Origin: Schmidtea nova
Taxonomy: Eukaryota
Direction of reading: 5' to 3'
Assembly (NCBI GenBank): GCA_044892505.1
Contig: CM097884.1
Location: forward strand, 106,144,001 to 106,208,000
Length of the DNA: 64,000 nt
This document shows, piece by piece, positions 12,381 through 63,417 of the stretch. Each line of letters opens with the position of its first letter. The stretch's first letter is position 1. Made by a program: the position numbers and the translations under genes. A model generated the notes under the pieces. The model saw only the letters and a list, made by a program, of their open reading frames with translations, did no database searches and was not told the origin of the DNA.

Positions 12381-13490
12381 AAAAGATTAAGTTATTAATA
12401 TGAATGCAATAAATTAAATAATTATAATAAAATTAAAATAAGTATTTAGGAATTGGTTAATAGAAATTAAATATAATGAATGATTATTAATAACTATAAA
12501 TCAAAACACATCTGCATTGAAAAAATATCAATTAGCTACTGCCTTCTTAATAGTAGAAAATTTGAGGATTGCCTAGAAGTTGGGTTGCAAGATGTTGAGA
12601 AGCTAAAAATAGGACAAATCAATAACAAAAACAATGATGAATAAAAAACAATTCAATATATTTGTAAATTAAAGATTTTTTTACACAGCAGTTTTTATTT
12701 ATTATGTCTAAACTTATATTTTTTATCATTCTTTGCACATTTTAATAATTCAATGTCATTTTGTATTATTTCAAAAAATTGTACGCAACTGCTTTTCGAA
12801 TTGATGCTAATGAGAAGTTCTGCTCTAATTAGTTCAGAAGAACACCTATTTCTTTCATCAGTTTTATTCATAATTGAAAATACACGTTCAATAAACTTTA
12901 TTAAACTGATTTTAACAAATGTTTATAGAAACTGATTTTATAAAAATAAATCAAATCAAATACATACATACAAACATGTTTAAAAATATTTTCAGAATTT
13001 TTTTTAATATTTTAATCTAGATGCCTTTGCTTTGAATTATAAAGAGAAAAAGATTTTTTTGTTAAATTTAAAAGGAAAACGGTACAAAGTAGAGTAAATA
13101 TTTCAAAGTAAGACAATTTCCCTTTCATGTAGTACGTAGGACAAATATCCAAATTGTAAGACTGTCCTACCGAAAGTAGGATGCGTGGCAACTTGACCTA
13201 GAAGTTCTCCAGTGATGACAGAGTTCTCTATTATCTGCAAATTGTTTTTAATGAGTTTGAATGATAATGTAAAAGTATTCATTAGATTTCTTAGCTGCTT
13301 AAATATCGATGCTCGAATTATATTATTATCATACTAATAATAATGCTTGCGTATATTAAAAAGATTTTTTGTGTAATAAACATTTTTTAACATTGATATA
13401 TTTGTTTTGATTGTCTTATTTATAGCTTTTTATAGGTATTGTTTTAGCTAGCGACTTTTATTACTCATATTTTAATATGTACTTTTATAG

Positions 13491-13682
13491 GACGCGAAAA
13501 ATGGCGTATGTGGGGTCACTTACAGAGTTACTGAACCTGGATTATACACATGCATCGTAAAATTTAACAGAAAGCATATAATGGGTTCTCCGTTTGCTAT
13601 AAATGTGAACCCAAAGCAAATAATGGGAAACAGGTCAAATGAAATTCCTACTAAATTGGAGCCGTATAGACAAATGTATCAG
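13491..13682 (+). CDS. fln: Filamin exon
   Basis: TTTTATAG acceptor, phase 0. DAKNGVCGVTYRVTEPGLYTCIVKFNRKHIMGSPFAINV completes the repeat begun at 5624-5811. The 3' boundary (46-nt intron 13683-13728) is inferred from frame. Confidence 0.85.
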
Positions 13683-13728
13683 GTTTTGAACGCAATGTTA
13701 TTAAGATTATATTTTACTACTGATTAAG

Positions 13729-14068
13729 ATTGGAAAGAAGTCAATTTTTAAGACAAAATTAAATAAAATAAATCTTGATCCCAAAATTGTGTGGTTTGCG
13801 TTGCTTCAATCTCCATCCGGTGATAAGAAAGAAGTTTATATCAACTACGATTACAAAAATGATATTATTTGGGCTGAATTTGTGCCCAATGAAATTGGCA
13901 TTCACTGGCTCTCATTTATGTACGAATCCGACAAGCACTTGCCCATAAATTTTGACACCTCTTTTCAAATAATTGTACAAGAAGTCGATAATTTTGACTT
14001 GACTAAGTTTCACAGAGAATTAGAATCGATTAAAGTTTTCGGTAAAGGTTTGGTAAAAGGTAAATCCG
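13729..14068 (+). CDS. fln: Filamin exon (diverged repeat)
   Basis: In frame after a 46-nt GT-AG intron: LQSPSGDKKEV...AEFVPNEIGIHWLSFMY...KVFGKGLVKGKS; GTAGGT donor at 14069. Confidence 0.75.
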
Positions 14069-14119
14069 GTAGGTTCCATTTAATTTCGTAAGTTATTATT
14101 ATTAACTTGCAAAAACAAG

Positions 14120-14364
14120 GAACTCCGAACTCCTTTCAAATTGAGATTGGAGAGTCGGTGAGTGGTGCTCTAAATGTTACCGTAGATGGACCGAGCAAGG
14201 TAGAGATCAAATGCAATGAAACGGAAAAAGGTTTCAGATTTTCATACATTCCTGCTATTCAGGGAGATTATTTGGTTACAATTAAATATGGTGGAGAATA
14301 TCAGATCAAGGGTTCCCCTTTTCAAGTTTGTATCAAATTGTTTTATAATCAGTTATGTTTTTAA
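14120..14364 (+). CDS. fln: Filamin exon (repeat-23-like); 3' end uncertain (read-through to stop or splice to an exon beyond)
   Basis: Follows a 51-nt intron (14069-14119): GTPNSFQIE...GALNVTVDGPSKVEIKC...FSYIPAIQGDYLVTIKYGGEYQIKGSPF. Confidence 0.85.
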
Positions 14365-44651: not shown

Positions 44652-45590
44652 TTTACGAGGTTTTTTGACGATATCCATGATGGTTCTTTATATCCATACC
44701 ACTTGATATAGTATTGTTTATCTTTACCGACCATTTTAGTTTTCAATATTTTTGAATTCGAAATATCGTTGGAAGGGGATTATCTTGTAATTCTTGTTCA
44801 TAGAATTTCCCACTGACTATATTGTTATCAGAATCAGAAATAGTATACATGACAGGATTCTGGACTGTGTTGACTTTCGATATTTGATATACCTCATCGC
44901 TCCAATTACTATCAAAGTTTTTAATGAATGGCGATGCACTAATTTTACTAATTCGAACATGATCACTTATTTTATATTTTGGTTTCTTTATTTTCGTATC
45001 ACTCAAAATATTTTCAGTATTAACTACTTCAGCAGGTTTCCTGCCATTTATACCTCGATGAGCAGAATGATTATAACTATGAATAATTTGTGGTAAAACA
45101 TAAATCCATGTTTTATTCCATTGATACAAAAAATATTTCTTCAGACGATCTCTTAATGTAATATTAAATCTTTCAACATGGGCTGCTTTGAATTGAGAGA
45201 ATACTGAGTAATGATTGATTCCCGTTAGAATTTCTTTGACTTTACTATTGTAAAATTCCTTACCCAGATAAATAGTTATCATTTTATAAAATAATATATA
45301 ATCTTACATAAATCAGTTTGTAAATTAGTTGGACGTCCACTTTTGAACATTGTTTTGAATGCAATAGCCATTTCATTTGCAGATTTAGATTTTACGTGAA
45401 TAGCCCAAGCAAAACGACTGTAAACATCAATACATGTCAAAATATACTTGTATACCTTGTTAATTTTTTAATATAGAATCATTTCCATCAAATCCATTTG
45501 CCACAAATCATTAATTCTATATGTTTTATATGCTCGAGTTGGAAACCGTTTCAGCATCGATTTGTTTAGACTGTGTGCAAGTTGCTTTTG
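44648..45590 (-). pseudogene. Retroviral-like integrase, Polinton copy 1 (5' deleted, stops, intron remnant)
   Basis: HVERFN, KPKYKISDHVRISK and FYEQELQ motifs; joined to the ATPase by an ~0.8-kb deletion. Confidence 0.88.
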
Positions 45591-46103: not shown

Positions 46104-46191
46104 ATTTCTAATTTTATTATTATTGTTTATATTCGTTTTAAATAATAGTTGTCATTGTTGTTGTCATATTTAAAAGATATTCATTAAAGTA

Positions 46192-46650
46192 ATGATTAGC
46201 AACATAAATTATAAGGGTAAAACTGATGTATCTCACATGAATTTCCCAAAGGGTAAACCACAGCAAATTATTGATAGAAGTGGTAAGTACCCGATAATAT
46301 TTTTTAAGACCGGGAGATTTAGAATTATGGGATGCAAGGAATTTATTATTGATGAAAAAGTAAATATTTATGATTTAAAAATACAATCAATTACTGTAAC
46401 GGTAGACTTGGAATTTAGTTGTAATTTAACTGTTTTATCTAAATTAATGGAATGTGTTTTCGAGCCAGAAATATTTCCAGCTTTGAGATATATAAAATAT
46501 AATCCTATTTGTGTTAATATATTTGCAAGCGGTAAAGTAGTTATATTAGGTTTAAAAATTAGGGATTATTATAATATAGTTGATAGTATTATTATCGATA
46601 TAAAATCAATTATTGAGGATAAAGACTTCAGATTTTTTATTAACGTGTGA
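46192..46650 (+). CDS. TBP-like (TATA-binding protein fold) protein, Polinton copy 1, 152 aa
   Basis: KIQSITVTVDLEF...FEPEIFPALRY...VNIFASGKVVILG matches the second TBP core repeat; about 75% identical to the copy 2 protein by manual alignment. Confidence 0.85.
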   Translation: MISNINYKGKTDVSHMNFPKGKPQQIIDRSGKYPIIFFKTGRFRIMGCKEFIIDEKVNIYDLKIQSITVTVDLEFSCNLTVLSKLMECVFEPEIFPALRYIKYNPICVNIFASGKVVILGLKIRDYYNIVDSIIIDIKSIIEDKDFRFFINV

Positions 46651-53931: not shown

Positions 53932-53976
53932 AGTAGGTAGATGTGTGGAGTCAAACACAAAGAAATGAGTCATAAT

Positions 53977-54041
53977 GCGTGGGCGGAAAATTTTAAACAA
54001 AGAACTTTTTTTTCCGAACCCCCCCCCCCCCGGGGGGGGTC

Positions 54042-54072
<31 letters not shown>

Positions 54073-54905
54073 CGCGCCAAAAATTTTTGAATTTTTTTTT
54101 TGAAAAATTTTTTAACACAAAATTTTTTTTTAACACAAATTTTTTTTTTAACACAAATTTTTTTTAACACAAATTTTTTCAACACAAAATTTTTTAACAC
54201 AAAATTTTTTAACACAAAATTTTTTAACATAAAATTTTTTAACATAAAATTTTTTAACACAAATTTTTTCAACACAAATTTTTTTCAACACAAAATTTTT
54301 TAACACAAAATTTTTTAACATAAAAATTTTAACACAAATTTTTTCAACACAAAATTTTTTAACACAAAATTTTTTAACACAAAATTTTTTAACACAAAAT
54401 TTTTTAACATAAAATTTTTTAACATAAAATTTTTTAACACAAATTTTTTCAACACAAATTTTTTTCAACACAAAAGTTTTTAACACAAAATTTTTTAACA
54501 TAAAATTTTTAACACAAATTTTTTCAACACAAAATTTTTTAACACAAAATTTTTTAACACAAATTTTTTTTTTTTTCACAAATTTTTTTTTTCACAAATT
54601 TTTTTTTTCATACAAATTTTTTTTTTTAAATTTTTTTTTTTTAAACAAAGAACTTTTTTATGCGTGGGCGTAAAAAATTTAAACTAAGAACTTTTTTATG
54701 CGTGGGCGTAAAAAATTTAAACAGAGAACTTTTTAATGCGTGGGCGTAAAAATTTTTAAACAAAGAACTTTTTCGAAACCCCCCCCTCGGGGGGGGCTAA
54801 ATTTTTTTTTTTTTTTTTTTTTTCAAAAATTATTTTTTTTTTGCGCCAAAAAATTTTAAAATTTTTAAAATTTTTTTTTTTTTTCAATTTTTTTTTCCCG
54901 CCAAA
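53977..54905 (+). promoter_or_regulatory. Cluster of EGR (4x GCGTGGGCG), E2F (TTTCGCGCCAAA, TTTCCCGCCAAA, TTTTGCGCCAAA) consensus sites, preceded by AP-1 TGAGTCA at 53966
   Basis: Motifs read directly at 53977, 54662, 54700, 54738 (EGR) and 54070, 54839, 54894 (E2F); function not demonstrated. Confidence 0.55.
54110..54600. repeat. Tandem 15/16-nt array (AACACAAAATTTTTT)n in the terminal region of copy 2
   Basis: Roughly 30 imperfect units read directly. Confidence 0.92.
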
Positions 54906-55143
54906 TTTATAATTGTAAATTAATTTTTTTTTTTTTTTACACAAATTTTTTTTTTACATAAATAATTTTAACAGAAATATTAGTCATCGAAAGGTTTGCA
55001 ACACGCGTGCAACTTAAACAAAGACAATGCAATACACGTGCAAGACTTTGCAACACGCGTGCAACTTAAACAAAGACAATGCAATACACGTGCAAGACTT
55101 TGCAATACACGTGCAACATGAACAAAGACATTGAAAATTAAAT

Positions 55144-55725
55144 TTATTTATAAATATATCGTTGTGTACGTGTACAAAATTTAGTTTCAAAATTATTTAC
55201 ATCTGGATTATTACTCGGAATATTATTCATAGGAATATTATTCATTGTAATATTATTCATCGGAATACTAGTATTTGTCGGAATATTATTCTTTGGAATA
55301 TTTGAAATCTTCTCCAGCCGTATGGATGCCGATAACATCATTATAATTATTAATATAAATAAACTTATATAATGTAATACAATGGCTGTTTTTTCATTTT
55401 CAACTGTTTGATTTTGGTATCTGACTTCATATTCTTTTTTAACAAAAGTTTGATTGATACATTTTAATCGTTCAACTATTTTCATCATTATTTTGGCAAT
55501 CATTTTTTCAATGTCATTATTAATCACATTATTTTTGGAAGGACATTGATTACATTGTAATTTTATTTGACTGCATTCAAGGTTTGAGTAAAGACATATA
55601 TCATTATAACTCGCACAAGTACTATCGTGTTTTCGAAACGGATGGGATGATTGACAATCTTCCAAAGCTTGTTCTCCTTCAGTATTGTGAACACATAATA
55701 ACAAAATAACTATATTTAATTTCAT
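55144..55725 (-). CDS. Predicted type I membrane glycoprotein with Cys-rich ectodomain, 193 aa
   Basis: Hydrophobic N-terminal signal, six-Cys cluster, two NQT sequons, TM segment AIVLHYISLFILIIIMMLSASI, tail with IPxNN repeats. Confidence 0.75.
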   Translation of the reverse strand: MKLNIVILLLCVHNTEGEQALEDCQSSHPFRKHDSTCASYNDICLYSNLECSQIKLQCNQCPSKNNVINNDIEKMIAKIMMKIVERLKCINQTFVKKEYEVRYQNQTVENEKTAIVLHYISLFILIIIMMLSASIRLEKISNIPKNNIPTNTSIPMNNITMNNIPMNNIPSNNPDVNNFETKFCTRTQRYIYK

Positions 55726-57507: not shown

Positions 57508-57975
57508 TCATGAGTCACATGTTAGTATGAAATCAACAAAGGCTTTATCTTCTATAACTGATTTTATATCGTTAATAATATCATCAACTATAGTTGAATA
57601 ATCTTTGTTTTTTAATCCTAATATGACTAATTTCCCACTTGCAAATATATTTACACACATGGGATTATATTTGGTATACCTTAAAGCTGGAAACAATTCT
57701 GGCTCGTAAACACACGGTATCAATCTCGATAATTCATTCAAATTACAAATGAATCCTAAATCCGCAGTTACAGTTATCGATTGAATTTTTAAATCGTAAA
57801 ACTCAACTTGTTCGTCACTAATAAATTCCCTACATCCCATTATTCTATATCTTCCTGTTTTAAAGTATATTATTGGATATTTCCCACTTCGATCTACAAT
57901 TTGCTGGGGTTTTCCATTTGGAAATTTCATGTGTGATACATCTGTCTTACCTTTGTAATTAATGTTTCTAATCAT
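57508..57975 (-). CDS. TBP-like (TATA-binding protein fold) protein, Polinton copy 2, 155 aa
   Basis: IRNIN...IIYFKTGRYRIMG (repeat 1) and KIQSITVTADLGF...YEPELFPALRY...VNIFASGKLVILG (repeat 2). Confidence 0.88.
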   Translation of the reverse strand: MIRNINYKGKTDVSHMKFPNGKPQQIVDRSGKYPIIYFKTGRYRIMGCREFISDEQVEFYDLKIQSITVTADLGFICNLNELSRLIPCVYEPELFPALRYTKYNPMCVNIFASGKLVILGLKNKDYSTIVDDIINDIKSVIEDKAFVDFILTCDS

Positions 57976-58068
57976 TACTGAAAATATGTTGAAATGAAAT
58001 AATTACTTTGAGAACCATTATTTAAAACAAATATAAACAATAACATTAAGAAAATATAATTTTTAAAT

Positions 58069-58692
58069 ATGGAATTAAGAAATGATGCAGTGTTTCAAAT
58101 TGTTGGTCCGAGCGGGAGTGGAAAAACTTTATTTGTTTGTAAATTATTGCAATCGAAATTATTCAAGTCGAAATTTAATAATATTTATTGGCATAGGGGT
58201 GCTGACGACGAAAATGGAATGACACAAGATCAGTTTTGTAAAATAAAAATGACAATCATAAAAGGTTTCGATAAAAACTGGTCATCTAGATTAAAACAAG
58301 GTGATGTGATTATCATTGACGACTTGTATCAAGAAGCAAATAAAGAAAAGGATTTTAATAATTTATTTACGAAAATCAGTAGACATAAAAGTGTTACTGT
58401 TATTTTTATAACTCAGAATTTATTTCATCAGGGCGGTAGTCATCGAACTCGTAATTTAAATGTTCAATATCTTGTTGTTTTTAAAAATCCTAGAGATGCA
58501 ACAGTTATTGATTTTCTGGCAAGACAAGCTTATCCTTCAAATCGTAACTTTTTGATTGAAGCCTTTCAGGATGCTACAAAATCTCCTCATGGATATATTT
58601 TCTTGGATTTTACTCAACAATGCAGTGATGATTTAAGGGTTAGAACTGATATTTTTAACAAGGAAGGAGCCATGGTTTATAAACAAAGTTAA
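58069..58692 (+). CDS. A32-like (FtsK/HerA superfamily) DNA packaging ATPase, 207 aa
   Basis: Walker A GPSGSGKT, Walker B IIIDD, SRH, ITQNLF, VFKNPRD and PHGYIFLD motifs. Confidence 0.93.
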   Translation: MELRNDAVFQIVGPSGSGKTLFVCKLLQSKLFKSKFNNIYWHRGADDENGMTQDQFCKIKMTIIKGFDKNWSSRLKQGDVIIIDDLYQEANKEKDFNNLFTKISRHKSVTVIFITQNLFHQGGSHRTRNLNVQYLVVFKNPRDATVIDFLARQAYPSNRNFLIEAFQDATKSPHGYIFLDFTQQCSDDLRVRTDIFNKEGAMVYKQS

Positions 58693-59313: not shown

Positions 59314-60358
59314 ATGGAGAAGATCTGGACGAACCCAAAAGACGACGCCGGTTTCGGTGGAGTCGAAAAGCTAAGGAAAAAAGCACAGAAGTCGAAACAA
59401 CAGACACAAAGTTGGTTATCGGGGCAACTTGCATACAGTCTAAACAAACCGATGTTGAAACGGTTTCCAACTCGAGCATATAAAACATATAGAATCAATG
59501 ATTTGTGGCAAATGGATTTGATGGAAATGATTCCGTATTCCGCTATTAACAAGGGGTACAAGTATATTTTAACATGTATTGATGTTTACAGTAGATTTGC
59601 TCGAGCAATTGGAGTCAAATCTAAATCTGCTAATGACATGGCAATTGCTATCAAGACAATGATGAAAAAGGATCGGCCAACTAATTTACAAACTGATTTG
59701 GGTAAATTTTAATTTAAATTTATAAATTTAATATTTTTTAGGAAAGGAATTTTACTACAGTAAAGTCAAGGAAGTTATCAAGGGAATAAATCATTATTCG
59801 GTATTCTCACAATTCAAAGCCGCTCATGTCGAGAGATTTAATCGAACTTTGCGGGATCGATTGAAAAAATACTTTGTTTTTAAAGGCAATAAAACCTGGA
59901 TTAATGTCTTACCTCAATTGATTCATAGTTATAATCATAGTGCTCATCGGGGTATAAATGGCAGGAAACCAGCAGAAGTAGTTGATACTGAAAATATTGT
60001 GAGTGAAGTGAAAGTAAAGAAACCAAAATATAAAGTTGATGATCATGTTCGAATTAGCAAGATTAGTGCATCGCCATTCATTAAAAATTTTGATAATAAT
60101 TGGAGTGATGAGGTATATCAAATATCGAAAGTCAACACAGTGCAGAATCCTGTCATGTATACTATTCGTGACTCTGATAACAATATAATCAGCGGCAAAT
60201 TCTACGAACAAGAATTACAAGTTATTCCTCCACCGACAATATTTAGAATTCAAAAAATCCTGAAATCTAAAATGGTGGGTAAGGATAAACAATACTATGT
60301 AAAGTGGCACGGATATAAAGAACCATCATGGATATCATCAAAAAACCTAGTAAAATGA
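59314..60358 (+). CDS. Retroviral-like (rve) integrase with C-terminal chromodomain; spliced (exons 59314-59701, 59742-60358), 334 aa
   Basis: WQMDL, LQTDLG|KEF and VERFNRTL catalytic D-D-E; YYVKWHGY chromodomain; removing a 40-nt GT-AG intron restores the frame. Confidence 0.92.
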
Positions 60359-61380
60359 ATTTTTATATGATTCTACCTAGCAACAGTTGTCCAGATATAC
60401 ATCCAGATAATACTTCCAGTAATTTCATGGTCAATCTCCAAAATCCAATGTATTTGGACGGGATTTGGGAAGTCGCTCTCTTAGACTTTACATTTGTGTA
60501 TAATCCATTTCCATTTTACAGTAAATCAGAAATTCGGTACAAAAAGAAAACTTTACATACAAAATATAAAAATTTGATAATCAACAATCAATTTTGTGAA
60601 GTTGATATATCTAATCCTGCCGATGATATTGCTCAAATCAGTAGCGATAGACAATCTATTTATTTTACCTGTGATAATTTTCCCTTCACTATAACTTTTG
60701 ATACTTTGGCAATGGCAAAAAGAATGGGATTAACGAAACAGAGTATTGTAAGTCCTACAGATACATACAAGATACCGTTACCACATTATGGTATAGATGG
60801 TCCATTACTGGAAAAAATTAGAATAAAGATGGAGTACAAGGCTGATTCTGCATTTATACATACATTTACCGATAATTTATACATATCGAAACTGGATGAA
60901 ATGCAATCATATTTTATTCTAAATTGTGCAAGTATTTTTAAATCTCTGGAATTGGTAGATGATAGTTACTTCAAATTCAGTTTGAATGTAGATGTTAGCG
61001 AAATAACTTTTGACAATAACCTTGTAAAAACATTGGGATTAGCGAAAGCTACATATGCTCAAGACGGAAGCTTCACTGTTGGAATATATAAACCAAAAAT
61101 AATTAAACTTCATCAGCAAATGTTCATTTACAGTAATATAGTCAATCCTATAATTGTCGGTGATTCATTAGTTCCCATGTTGAAATCTGTATGGATTGAA
61201 AAATATGAACAGGATGAGGTTGTTCAAATACAAGTTGAAAATCCAATGTATTTATCTGTTTCAACATCTTGTATAAACAATATAGAAATAAATATCCGAG
61301 ATGATAGAGGTAATTTAATAAACTTTCCAAAAAATTCAAAAACTCATTTGACTCTACATTTTCGAAAACATCATGAGTAA
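60355..61380 (+). CDS. Minor capsid protein (penton, single jelly roll)
   Basis: MNFYMILPSNS...NFMVNLQNPMYLDGIWEVAL...YSNIV..IIVGD...INIRDDRG...LHFR signature; ATG overlaps the integrase stop (ATGA). Confidence 0.9.
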   Translation: MNFYMILPSNSCPDIHPDNTSSNFMVNLQNPMYLDGIWEVALLDFTFVYNPFPFYSKSEIRYKKKTLHTKYKNLIINNQFCEVDISNPADDIAQISSDRQSIYFTCDNFPFTITFDTLAMAKRMGLTKQSIVSPTDTYKIPLPHYGIDGPLLEKIRIKMEYKADSAFIHTFTDNLYISKLDEMQSYFILNCASIFKSLELVDDSYFKFSLNVDVSEITFDNNLVKTLGLAKATYAQDGSFTVGIYKPKIIKLHQQMFIYSNIVNPIIVGDSLVPMLKSVWIEKYEQDEVVQIQVENPMYLSVSTSCINNIEINIRDDRGNLINFPKNSKTHLTLHFRKHHE

Positions 61381-61738
61381 TCCCGATATAATTTCATTGT
61401 ACAGTAATAGTCAAACTGGTGGCGAATTACCGTATTTTATAGGTAAACAGTATGGATCAGGTTGGTTGAAAACTATTGGAAGATTTGCACTTCCACTACT
61501 TAAGCGACTGGGCAGTTTTGGAATGAAAACTGCTAAAGACGTTATAATGAAAGATCAGAAAATTTTGCCTACATTGAAAACGAATGCTATGGAGGCTGTA
61601 TCCAAGGCGATACCGTCAATTTCAAATATGTTTTCCAAAAACGAACCGCAACCTGAACCGGTAGGACCAAGACGTAAAAAGATTAGAAAACGTATAAACA
61701 AACGAATGAAAGGTCATGGAACTATATTTGAAGAATGA
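61373..61738 (+). CDS. Small virion/core-like precursor protein, 121 aa
   Basis: QTGGELPYFIGKQYGSGWLKTIGRFALPLLK, amphipathic segment and basic C-terminus. Confidence 0.82.
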   Translation: MSNPDIISLYSNSQTGGELPYFIGKQYGSGWLKTIGRFALPLLKRLGSFGMKTAKDVIMKDQKILPTLKTNAMEAVSKAIPSISNMFSKNEPQPEPVGPRRKKIRKRINKRMKGHGTIFEE

Positions 61739-62955
61739 TTTGCGGTAAATCTGAATTATGTCTTTTTGATCGACCATCACCTCAAGCAGTTATTGAATAT
61801 GGGGTGTTTGAAGATGTTTTTCCAATGAATTCTATTACAGATAGTAGAAATGATGTTGAATTTTACATTAATGGATCGGCAACCGAATATTTGGATTTGA
61901 ACGATACTTTATTATCCGTTACTGTCAAGGTTCTAGATAAAGATAAAAATAAATTAGTTGATGCGAGTGACGTAGTGCCTAATAATTACCTATTTCATAC
62001 TCTTTTCAAAGATGCGATTCTTGGATTTAATAATATAAAAATCGAGGGTGGAAACAATACATATGCACACAAGGCCATAATCGAAACTGTTTTAAATTAT
62101 ACTAGCGATACAAAAGAAACATGTCTTACTCCAATGGGATATGGTTCCGCTGACGATCGGAAAAAATGGATCAAGGGATCTAAACTTTTCAACATGTGTT
62201 CATCATTACAACTCGATTTTATGGATCAACCAAAATACTTACTTCCCGGAGTTAATGTACATATTAGATTGAAGAGATCTGAATCTTCATTATCATTGAA
62301 ATCTGCAGCTGGGAAACCTATAATCCAAATAGTTGATGCAAAATTAATGGTAAGAAGAGTTCGATGTGAATCTTCAGTTTTGGCCGGTCATCAAATTGGT
62401 TTAAATAGTAAACATGCAATTTATCCATTAAAATCTAAAGAAATCGTATCGTTTGCAATCGGTAAAGGGGCATCGTCATTTTACAAGGAGCAAATATTTG
62501 GAGATAGAAGAATGCCTAATTTCATTCTTGTGGCTTTTCAAACTGAAAATCAATATAATGGATCATATGCTGAATCTGCATCTACATTCAAACATTTCAA
62601 TGTGACTTCATTATCGTTATCGAAAAATACCGATTTTCGAGAAACTTATACTCAAGATTTTGAAAATGATAATTTTAGTGCCACATATATGCAAAGTCTT
62701 GTCCGAAATCTAGGATATTTGGATAAAAACTTGAATTGTGGTATAAGTCTGGATGAATTTAAAAGTAAATATCCATTCTTTACATTTGTGCTCGCTCCCG
62801 ATTTCGATTTGAATCAAAGCCAAATCCCTCAAAACGGGAATTTACGACTCGATATAAAGTTTGCAAAACCCATTGATGAACCGGTTCATGTAATTATATA
62901 TGGAGTTTTTGAAAATGAAGTACAAATTACTGCCAATCGAACAATACTAGTTTGA
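61735..62955 (+). CDS. Major capsid protein (double jelly roll, hexon-like), 406 aa
   Basis: KSELCLF..P..Q..IE, VEFYI, YLDLNDT, FMDQPKYLLPGV and GNLRLDIKFAKP signatures of Polinton MCPs. Confidence 0.92.
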   Translation: MICGKSELCLFDRPSPQAVIEYGVFEDVFPMNSITDSRNDVEFYINGSATEYLDLNDTLLSVTVKVLDKDKNKLVDASDVVPNNYLFHTLFKDAILGFNNIKIEGGNNTYAHKAIIETVLNYTSDTKETCLTPMGYGSADDRKKWIKGSKLFNMCSSLQLDFMDQPKYLLPGVNVHIRLKRSESSLSLKSAAGKPIIQIVDAKLMVRRVRCESSVLAGHQIGLNSKHAIYPLKSKEIVSFAIGKGASSFYKEQIFGDRRMPNFILVAFQTENQYNGSYAESASTFKHFNVTSLSLSKNTDFRETYTQDFENDNFSATYMQSLVRNLGYLDKNLNCGISLDEFKSKYPFFTFVLAPDFDLNQSQIPQNGNLRLDIKFAKPIDEPVHVIIYGVFENEVQITANRTILV

Positions 62956-63040: not shown

Positions 63041-63417
63041 ATGGAGTAAGATTTTTATTTGATTAGTTATTTATTTTAATTAGTTCTATTCAGGTATTAC
63101 ATCAAGGTAAAAAACTATTGGGAAATCAATTTATTGGAGTATTTCCTCTGGATAAAATACCTTATTTGAAAATGAATCAAGCCATCATTGTAAATACTCA
63201 GACATCTACGTTGGGCGGTGAACATTGGATTGCAGTTTACGTGAAACCAGATCGAATACATGTATTTGATCCATTTGGATATTATTATCCGAATTTACTT
63301 GTTCGAAAACTACAAACTATTGGTAAACCTATTGTGTATAATAGAATTCGATATCAGCATCCTTTAACAATCACTTGTGGTGAACATTGCCTTGCATGGT
63401 TGAAATCAATGTTATAA
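63041..63417 (+). CDS. Adenain-like cysteine protease; spliced (exons 63041-63045, 63084-63417)
   Basis: FIGVFPLD, IVNT, GEHWIA (His), FDPFG (Asp) and Q....TCGEHC (Cys); a 38-nt intron supplies the only nearby ATG. Confidence 0.9.

Follow-up and report, generated by a model that had tools for sequence, protein, structure and literature searches.

Does the integrase of this Polinton depend on the host spliceosome to assemble its catalytic core? The question is raised by a 40-nt GT-AG stretch in a DDE integrase gene of Schmidtea nova, and it carries two others with it: (i) whether removal of such an intron would be regulated; and (ii) how the intron came to be there. The window referred to below is the whole stretch of DNA analysed, 64,000 nt at positions 106,144,001 to 106,208,000 of contig CM097884.1 (GCA_044892505.1). 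Coordinates are window positions on the + strand unless marked otherwise.

The ORFs of vertebrate Mavericks are described as intronless (PMC8097293, which finds this consistent with Kapitonov and Jurka 2006), and in nematode Mavericks the core genes are called intronless, introns being placed in cargo genes (bioRxiv 10.1101/2022.07.12.499685). The statement of the initial annotation that Polinton genes are intron-poor agrees with the accessible text of both sources. Maverick expansions have been reported in planarians, according to the portion available of bioRxiv 10.64898/2025.12.11.693146. In the accessible parts of the literature, no core gene of a Polinton was found to have a spliceosomal intron, and a single text match to 'contain introns' came from PMC10120064; Repbase entries, subscription journals and supplements lie outside this scope and may describe such introns.

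Results

A predicted intron in the integrase catalytic core

The integrase gene begins with an ATG at 59314, in agreement with the N-termini of homologues. Exon 1 (59314..59701, 388 nt) extends to the second catalytic Asp and matches Pfam rve (E 2.9e-08), and exon 2 (59742..60358, 617 nt) supplies the catalytic Glu, a chromodomain (Pfam Chromo, E 1.6e-05) and the stop codon. The product is thus a DDE integrase of the retroviral type with a chromodomain, and its DxGxEF motif recurs in 103 of 120 homologues. Between the exons lies the predicted phase-1 intron (59702..59741), which starts with GTAAAT, ends with TTTTAG and splits the Gly codon of QTDL-G-KEF within the catalytic core; its interior is AT-rich and of low complexity. 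The VERFN glutamate and the chromodomain are both in frame downstream, and the unspliced frame reaches a stop right after G-K-F. Both features had been described in the initial annotation, which placed a 40-nt insert after the second Asp and a stop in unspliced RNA ahead of the Glu and chromodomain, and both are confirmed. Four sequencing-read runs cover the whole region and show no joint across the intron; they have Tn5-type adapter ends and look like DNA, and so have no bearing on splicing.

A different 44-nt insert occupies the same integrase site in copy 1 of the window, a subfamily B copy on the − strand (45264..45307). The insert had been noted before and is indeed present (45307-45264), but the decay of copy 1 had been overlooked: the 3′ end of its insert is GG, its exon 1 contains a stop and its exon 2 a frameshift. 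In the 29 nearest relatives of copy 1, the inserts are 43-44 nt long and end in AG in all except one (28 of 29).

The length of the predicted intron is in keeping with the host's own genes. The precedents put forward earlier, filamin introns of the host measuring 46 nt (13683-13728) and 51 nt (14069-14119), are present by inspection, and the candidates inspected measure 42, 43, 43, 46, 48 and 51 nt, with an additional candidate of 68 nt. As a length for an intron, 40 nt is very short. Because the candidate filamin introns span 42-51 nt, a size of 40 nt appears ordinary in this host, the minimum host intron size being based on six inspected candidates. The window itself lies within this filamin-repeat gene (+ strand; 101-256 and 13485-14325), whose long introns contain Polinton copies as well as mariner- and hAT-type remnants.

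A trait of the family

Fifty-three loci yielded 31 distinct introns, all of the form GT..YAG, 40-48 nt long and distributed over all three length classes modulo 3. The GT, a T at −5 and the YAG are invariant, and the flanking Gly codons vary between subfamilies. Ends of the U2 type (a GTAAG-like donor and a T-rich YAG acceptor) were found in 31 of 31 distinct variants, with donor strength that is not uniform (GTTATA in one subfamily).

Searched with a pattern on both exon flanks, the whole genome contains 10,568 copies with a gap of 31-60 nt and 196 with a gap of 3-30 nt, compared with 0 and 4 matches, respectively, for reversed-pattern controls; these copy counts are lower bounds because matching was exact and the patterns derive from the families concerned, and divergent intronless families are perhaps under-counted. 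GT and AG are found in exact register in 10,213 of the 10,568 copies, which is not chance, given the 0 of the reversed-pattern control, and introns shorter than 40 nt account for only 155 of the 10,213. More than 10,000 Polinton integrase copies in a 1.25-Gb AT-rich genome correspond to about one per 120 kb, and if most copies were full length they would make up an estimated 15% or so of the genome.

Selection on the two exons was estimated from the 8 of 12 subfamily representatives whose reading frame is open in the stretches of both exons. Of 28 pairs, 27 were usable for each exon; the median dN/dS came to 0.15 in exon 1 and to 0.11 in exon 2, where no value exceeds 0.16. The intron interiors of the same 8 representatives are 57-90% alike, so that the frame is restored on removal of an interior that drifts, as in U2-type introns. 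Both exon frames are open in 18 of 30 copies sampled in genome order. Because the catalytic Glu lies in exon 2 and exon 2 is under purifying selection, exon 2 has been read in frame by ribosomes for as long as the clade has diversified, and splicing would be the simplest way to keep it so. Judged from the copies compared, the insert is a trait of the family rather than a product of decay. The spliceosomal reading of the initial annotation is strongly supported by this comparative evidence, and we conclude that 59702-59741 is very probably removed by splicing, likely as an ordinary U2-type intron.

The main-clade integrases also have a D-x31-E spacing (59742-59840), compared with 33-34 residues in relatives; the second Asp and the Glu are separated by 33 residues in the intronless families, in lineage D (described below) and in 82 of 91 scored homologues. 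That a D-x31-E integrase of the main clade is active we infer solely from selection. In the protein database there is no spliced full-length protein of the main-clade integrase, the best match being 72% identical.

The element carrying the intron

The integrase is encoded by a bona fide, complete and recently expanded Polinton. The left terminus, with its terminal inverted repeat (TIR) region (53932..55500, inner end approximate), is identical to that of four sister elements and is mirrored in L091, a locus just past the window end. It is followed by a TBP-like accessory ORF on the − strand (57508..58002; Pfam TBP, E 8.7e-14), an A32-like packaging ATPase (58060..58692; Pfam Pox_A32, E 1e-06), the integrase, an ORF assigned by position only to the usual place of the minor capsid protein and lacking a Pfam match (60319..61380), a probable major capsid protein (61732..62955; a weak Pfam DJR-like match below the cut-off, E 0.0048) and exon 2 of an adenain-like protease (63084..63417; Pfam Peptidase_C5, E 5.2e-06). 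The ATPase and capsid genes are single ORFs, and the Pox_A32 and Peptidase_C5 matches are above the cut-off, as expected of a Polinton. Locus L091 contains a 1383-aa polymerase ORF; this ORF has no Pfam match to DNA_pol_B_2 itself, but an ORF of the window with which it shares 52% identity does have one, which identifies a protein-primed type B DNA polymerase. The TBP-like ORFs at 57508-58002 and 46174-46650 (E about 1e-13) are arranged head-to-head with the ATPase.

Of five sister elements examined at both ends, four have both termini; these are 17.8-18.3 kb long, within the 15-20 kb of Polintons, and have long TIRs starting with AG and perfect 6-bp target site duplications (TSDs) in four of four. 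The right end of the window copy abuts another element: a second Polinton (subfamily B, with a 43-nt integrase intron) begins inside or against the right TIR (L091:8684 onward; L092).

The element thus resembles animal Polintons/Mavericks in its polymerase B, rve-chromodomain integrase, A32 ATPase, adenain-like protease and probable capsids, and in its long TIRs, 6-bp TSD and length of about 18 kb. It departs from the intronless core genes that are a reported, non-defining trait of Polintons, since GT-AG inserts occur in the integrase, protease and polymerase regions.

Further predicted introns

The integrase intron had previously been treated as a lone one, which is not borne out. A 38-nt, phase-2 GT-AG intron (63046..63083) is predicted in the protease gene, after 5 nt of coding sequence; it has 8,841 genome-wide matches and 22 distinct variants of 37-47 nt. 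Family C, which has an intronless integrase, shares it, as do five metagenome contigs; five more distant metagenome contigs (L167, L193, L204, L207 and L215) lack it. The observation covers window 63046-63083 and loci L144, L149, L150, L156 and L157. Because the protease intron occurs in integrase-intronless families and in five metagenome contigs, it is older than the integrase intron. Introns have therefore built up stepwise in the lineage, with the integrase intron a later one.

In the 5′ region of the polymerase, four phase-1 introns are predicted before the ORF in two subfamilies, with all exons open (L091:1253-2543; L092:8754-9895). Three are 47-53 nt long and one is 656-719 nt, and they connect short, fast-evolving exons to the conserved Cys/His-rich start of the polymerase ORF. 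All 14 of the 14 copies checked retain an AG-G acceptor. Given the predicted protease and polymerase introns, the element would already have depended on host splicing before the integrase intron arose.

Gain of the integrase intron

Among metagenome relatives, the integrase site is continuous in 75 of 80 contigs; the remaining five start too late (at the site or beyond it), stop short of it or have no motif match, so that all 75 informative contigs are uninterrupted. Homologues from the database, a source that favours uninterrupted ORFs, likewise read straight through the site in 103 of 120 cases, and no relative was found in a viral contig set. Because the outside relatives are uninterrupted at the site, the intron appears to have been gained. 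When the junction is masked, a protein tree places 25 copies that carry the intron in one clade (100/97), nested among intronless relatives. The L-G-K codons of intronless integrases read TTR-GGT-AAR, which amounts to a ready-made proto-splice site.

The single clean gain suggested by this first protein tree was weakened once lineage D was added. Lineage D is a rarer sister whose integrase has, at this very site, an intron of 38 nt with a GTAT donor, and whose spacing is the ancestral D-x33-E; four intronless copies fall inside its clade, with support of 98/99 from protein (three of the four) and 97/96 from DNA. A DNA test rejected a single clade of all intron-bearing copies (p-AU 0.0009) and was borderline for a clade of the intron-bearing D copies alone (p-AU 0.05); the DNA tree is partly saturated, with one outgroup row misplaced, and the bootstrap of the D protein tree is not settled. 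Two histories would fit: loss of the intron by an active D lineage, or separate gains in lineage D and in the main clade. Parallel gain is quite possible, though short of probable.

The initial annotation had held that copies encoding the integrase without the insert would speak against an intron. Such copies do occur in divergent sister families, but not in the main clade: the 17 intronless copies found with an ACB-codon pattern comprise five of D type, six of family E, three of family C, two C-like and one unplaced. None being of the main clade, this set offers no processed retrocopy as proof of splicing, and precise intron loss in individual copies would seem to be rare. The intronless copies sit in element context, and a reading of them as processed mRNA copies was rejected. 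An origin of the intron by tandem duplication was likewise discarded, the intron ends being no closer to the flanking exons than are protease introns or shuffled sequences (score 11.6 versus 11.3 at the 5′ end and 10.8 versus 12.3 at the 3′ end; 1 of 62 shuffle tests under 0.05).

Family C (L132-L137; G000:C1:17243516-17257751 and about 162910042-162924283) is a 14.2-kb, almost fully palindromic Polinton derivative. Its two 6.85-kb arms are 99.8% identical and each carries an ATPase, an intronless integrase and capsid genes around a single central protease; its TSDs are 6 bp, and no polymerase match was found in it. The family C type accounts for 81 of the first 100 short-gap matches listed, often as pairs in inverted orientation with a spacing of about 7.25 kb. 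Family C has the appearance of a helper-dependent satellite.

Discussion

We consider it likely that the predicted intron was gained by the main Polinton lineage and is removed constitutively by the host spliceosome, without special regulation. The gain would have occurred at a pre-existing AG/G-GT proto-splice site formed by the Leu-Gly-Lys codons, and constitutive removal of the 40-nt intron would yield a 334-residue DDE-chromodomain integrase. Any part of the integrase intron in regulation would be small, since splicing it out should cost little in a host whose own introns are equally short.

Two other readings dispense with splicing. The insert might be an inactivating one, with the elements moved in trans by the intronless integrase of another family; family C of the same genome, with two uninterrupted integrases per element and 6-bp TSDs, could be such a source. 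We regard this as very improbable, since exon 2 dN/dS is at most 0.16 across subfamilies near synonymous saturation and GT and AG are kept throughout, and since intron-bearing copies outnumber short-gap copies by about 54 to 1 with the exact genome patterns. T4 gene 60 is known for ribosomal hopping, and the Gly codons on both sides of the gap are reminiscent of it. Crossing of the gap in translation, by ribosomal bypass or frameshifting, is nevertheless the most improbable of the readings, because the lengths fall in all three classes modulo 3, the invariants are GT, T at −5 and YAG rather than matching codons, and the same architecture occurs at phase 2 in the protease gene.

A true intron could also be spliced under control of cell type or of piRNA and chromatin, gating integration as does the third intron (IVS3) of the Drosophila P element, the possibility raised by the initial annotation. 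When IVS3 is retained, a repressor results, and retention is brought about either by piRNA or by an exonic silencer that contains pseudo-5′ splice sites (PMC7776569, as far as its accessible text goes). The likeness is that retention would yield a truncated, inactive recombinase: the intron lies between the second Asp and the Glu, and its retention inactivates 29 of 31 variants by a premature stop. The hallmarks of IVS3, however, were not seen. Read-through tails are 3-20 residues long across subfamilies, with two of 31 introns in frame and stop-free, so that no conserved truncated product is apparent, and a simple motif scan of the 80 nt upstream found a pseudo-donor, a weak one, in only 1 of 12 copies. 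The integrase intron moreover resembles the element's own protease and polymerase introns, and sister families without it have spread too. With unconserved tails and pseudo-donors near-absent, the sequence lends the proposal no support, and we think it unlikely; since the piRNA control of IVS3 has no specific sequence need, according to the same partly available source, control of that type would leave no trace in the DNA and could operate here. More doubtful again is a combined scenario. In it, sister Polintons of a single host would have acquired introns at this proto-splice site on two or three separate occasions, and host control of splicing, gating integration by cell type or piRNA or protecting against silencing directed at intronless RNA, would have allowed one lineage to expand beyond 10,000 copies, its intronless sisters numbering only tens to low hundreds.

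The element differs from the systems nearest to it, as far as the accessible text of the sources cited in this paragraph and above describes them. Vertebrate and nematode Mavericks differ from it in that spliceosomal introns are here predicted in the integrase, protease and polymerase, at more than 10,000 copies. The introner-invaded Maverick-Polinton-like elements of dinoflagellates are similar in having intron-type sequences within Polinton-like elements; introners, however, are mobile families mostly inserted after integration (PMC11957031), whereas here single introns occupy fixed core-gene sites, are inherited with the replicating lineage and appear to be kept under selection. Ginger1 transposases have 1-4 GT-AG introns in a Gypsy-like integrase/transposase gene (PMC2836005), but Ginger1 is a small cut-and-paste element without polymerase or capsid genes.

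Finally, we note some implications for the Polinton family. Annotation of Polintons, and the scoring of copies as intact, presupposes ORFs free of introns; a splicing-dependent lineage would be classed as defective, and estimates of how abundant and active it is would be too low. A need for splicing would tie the element to nuclear Pol II transcription and may give the host a means of controlling integration. Because young copies number in the thousands and sister lineages differ in the presence of an intron at one codon, S. nova may provide an unusually well-sampled case of recent intron gain, possibly in parallel.
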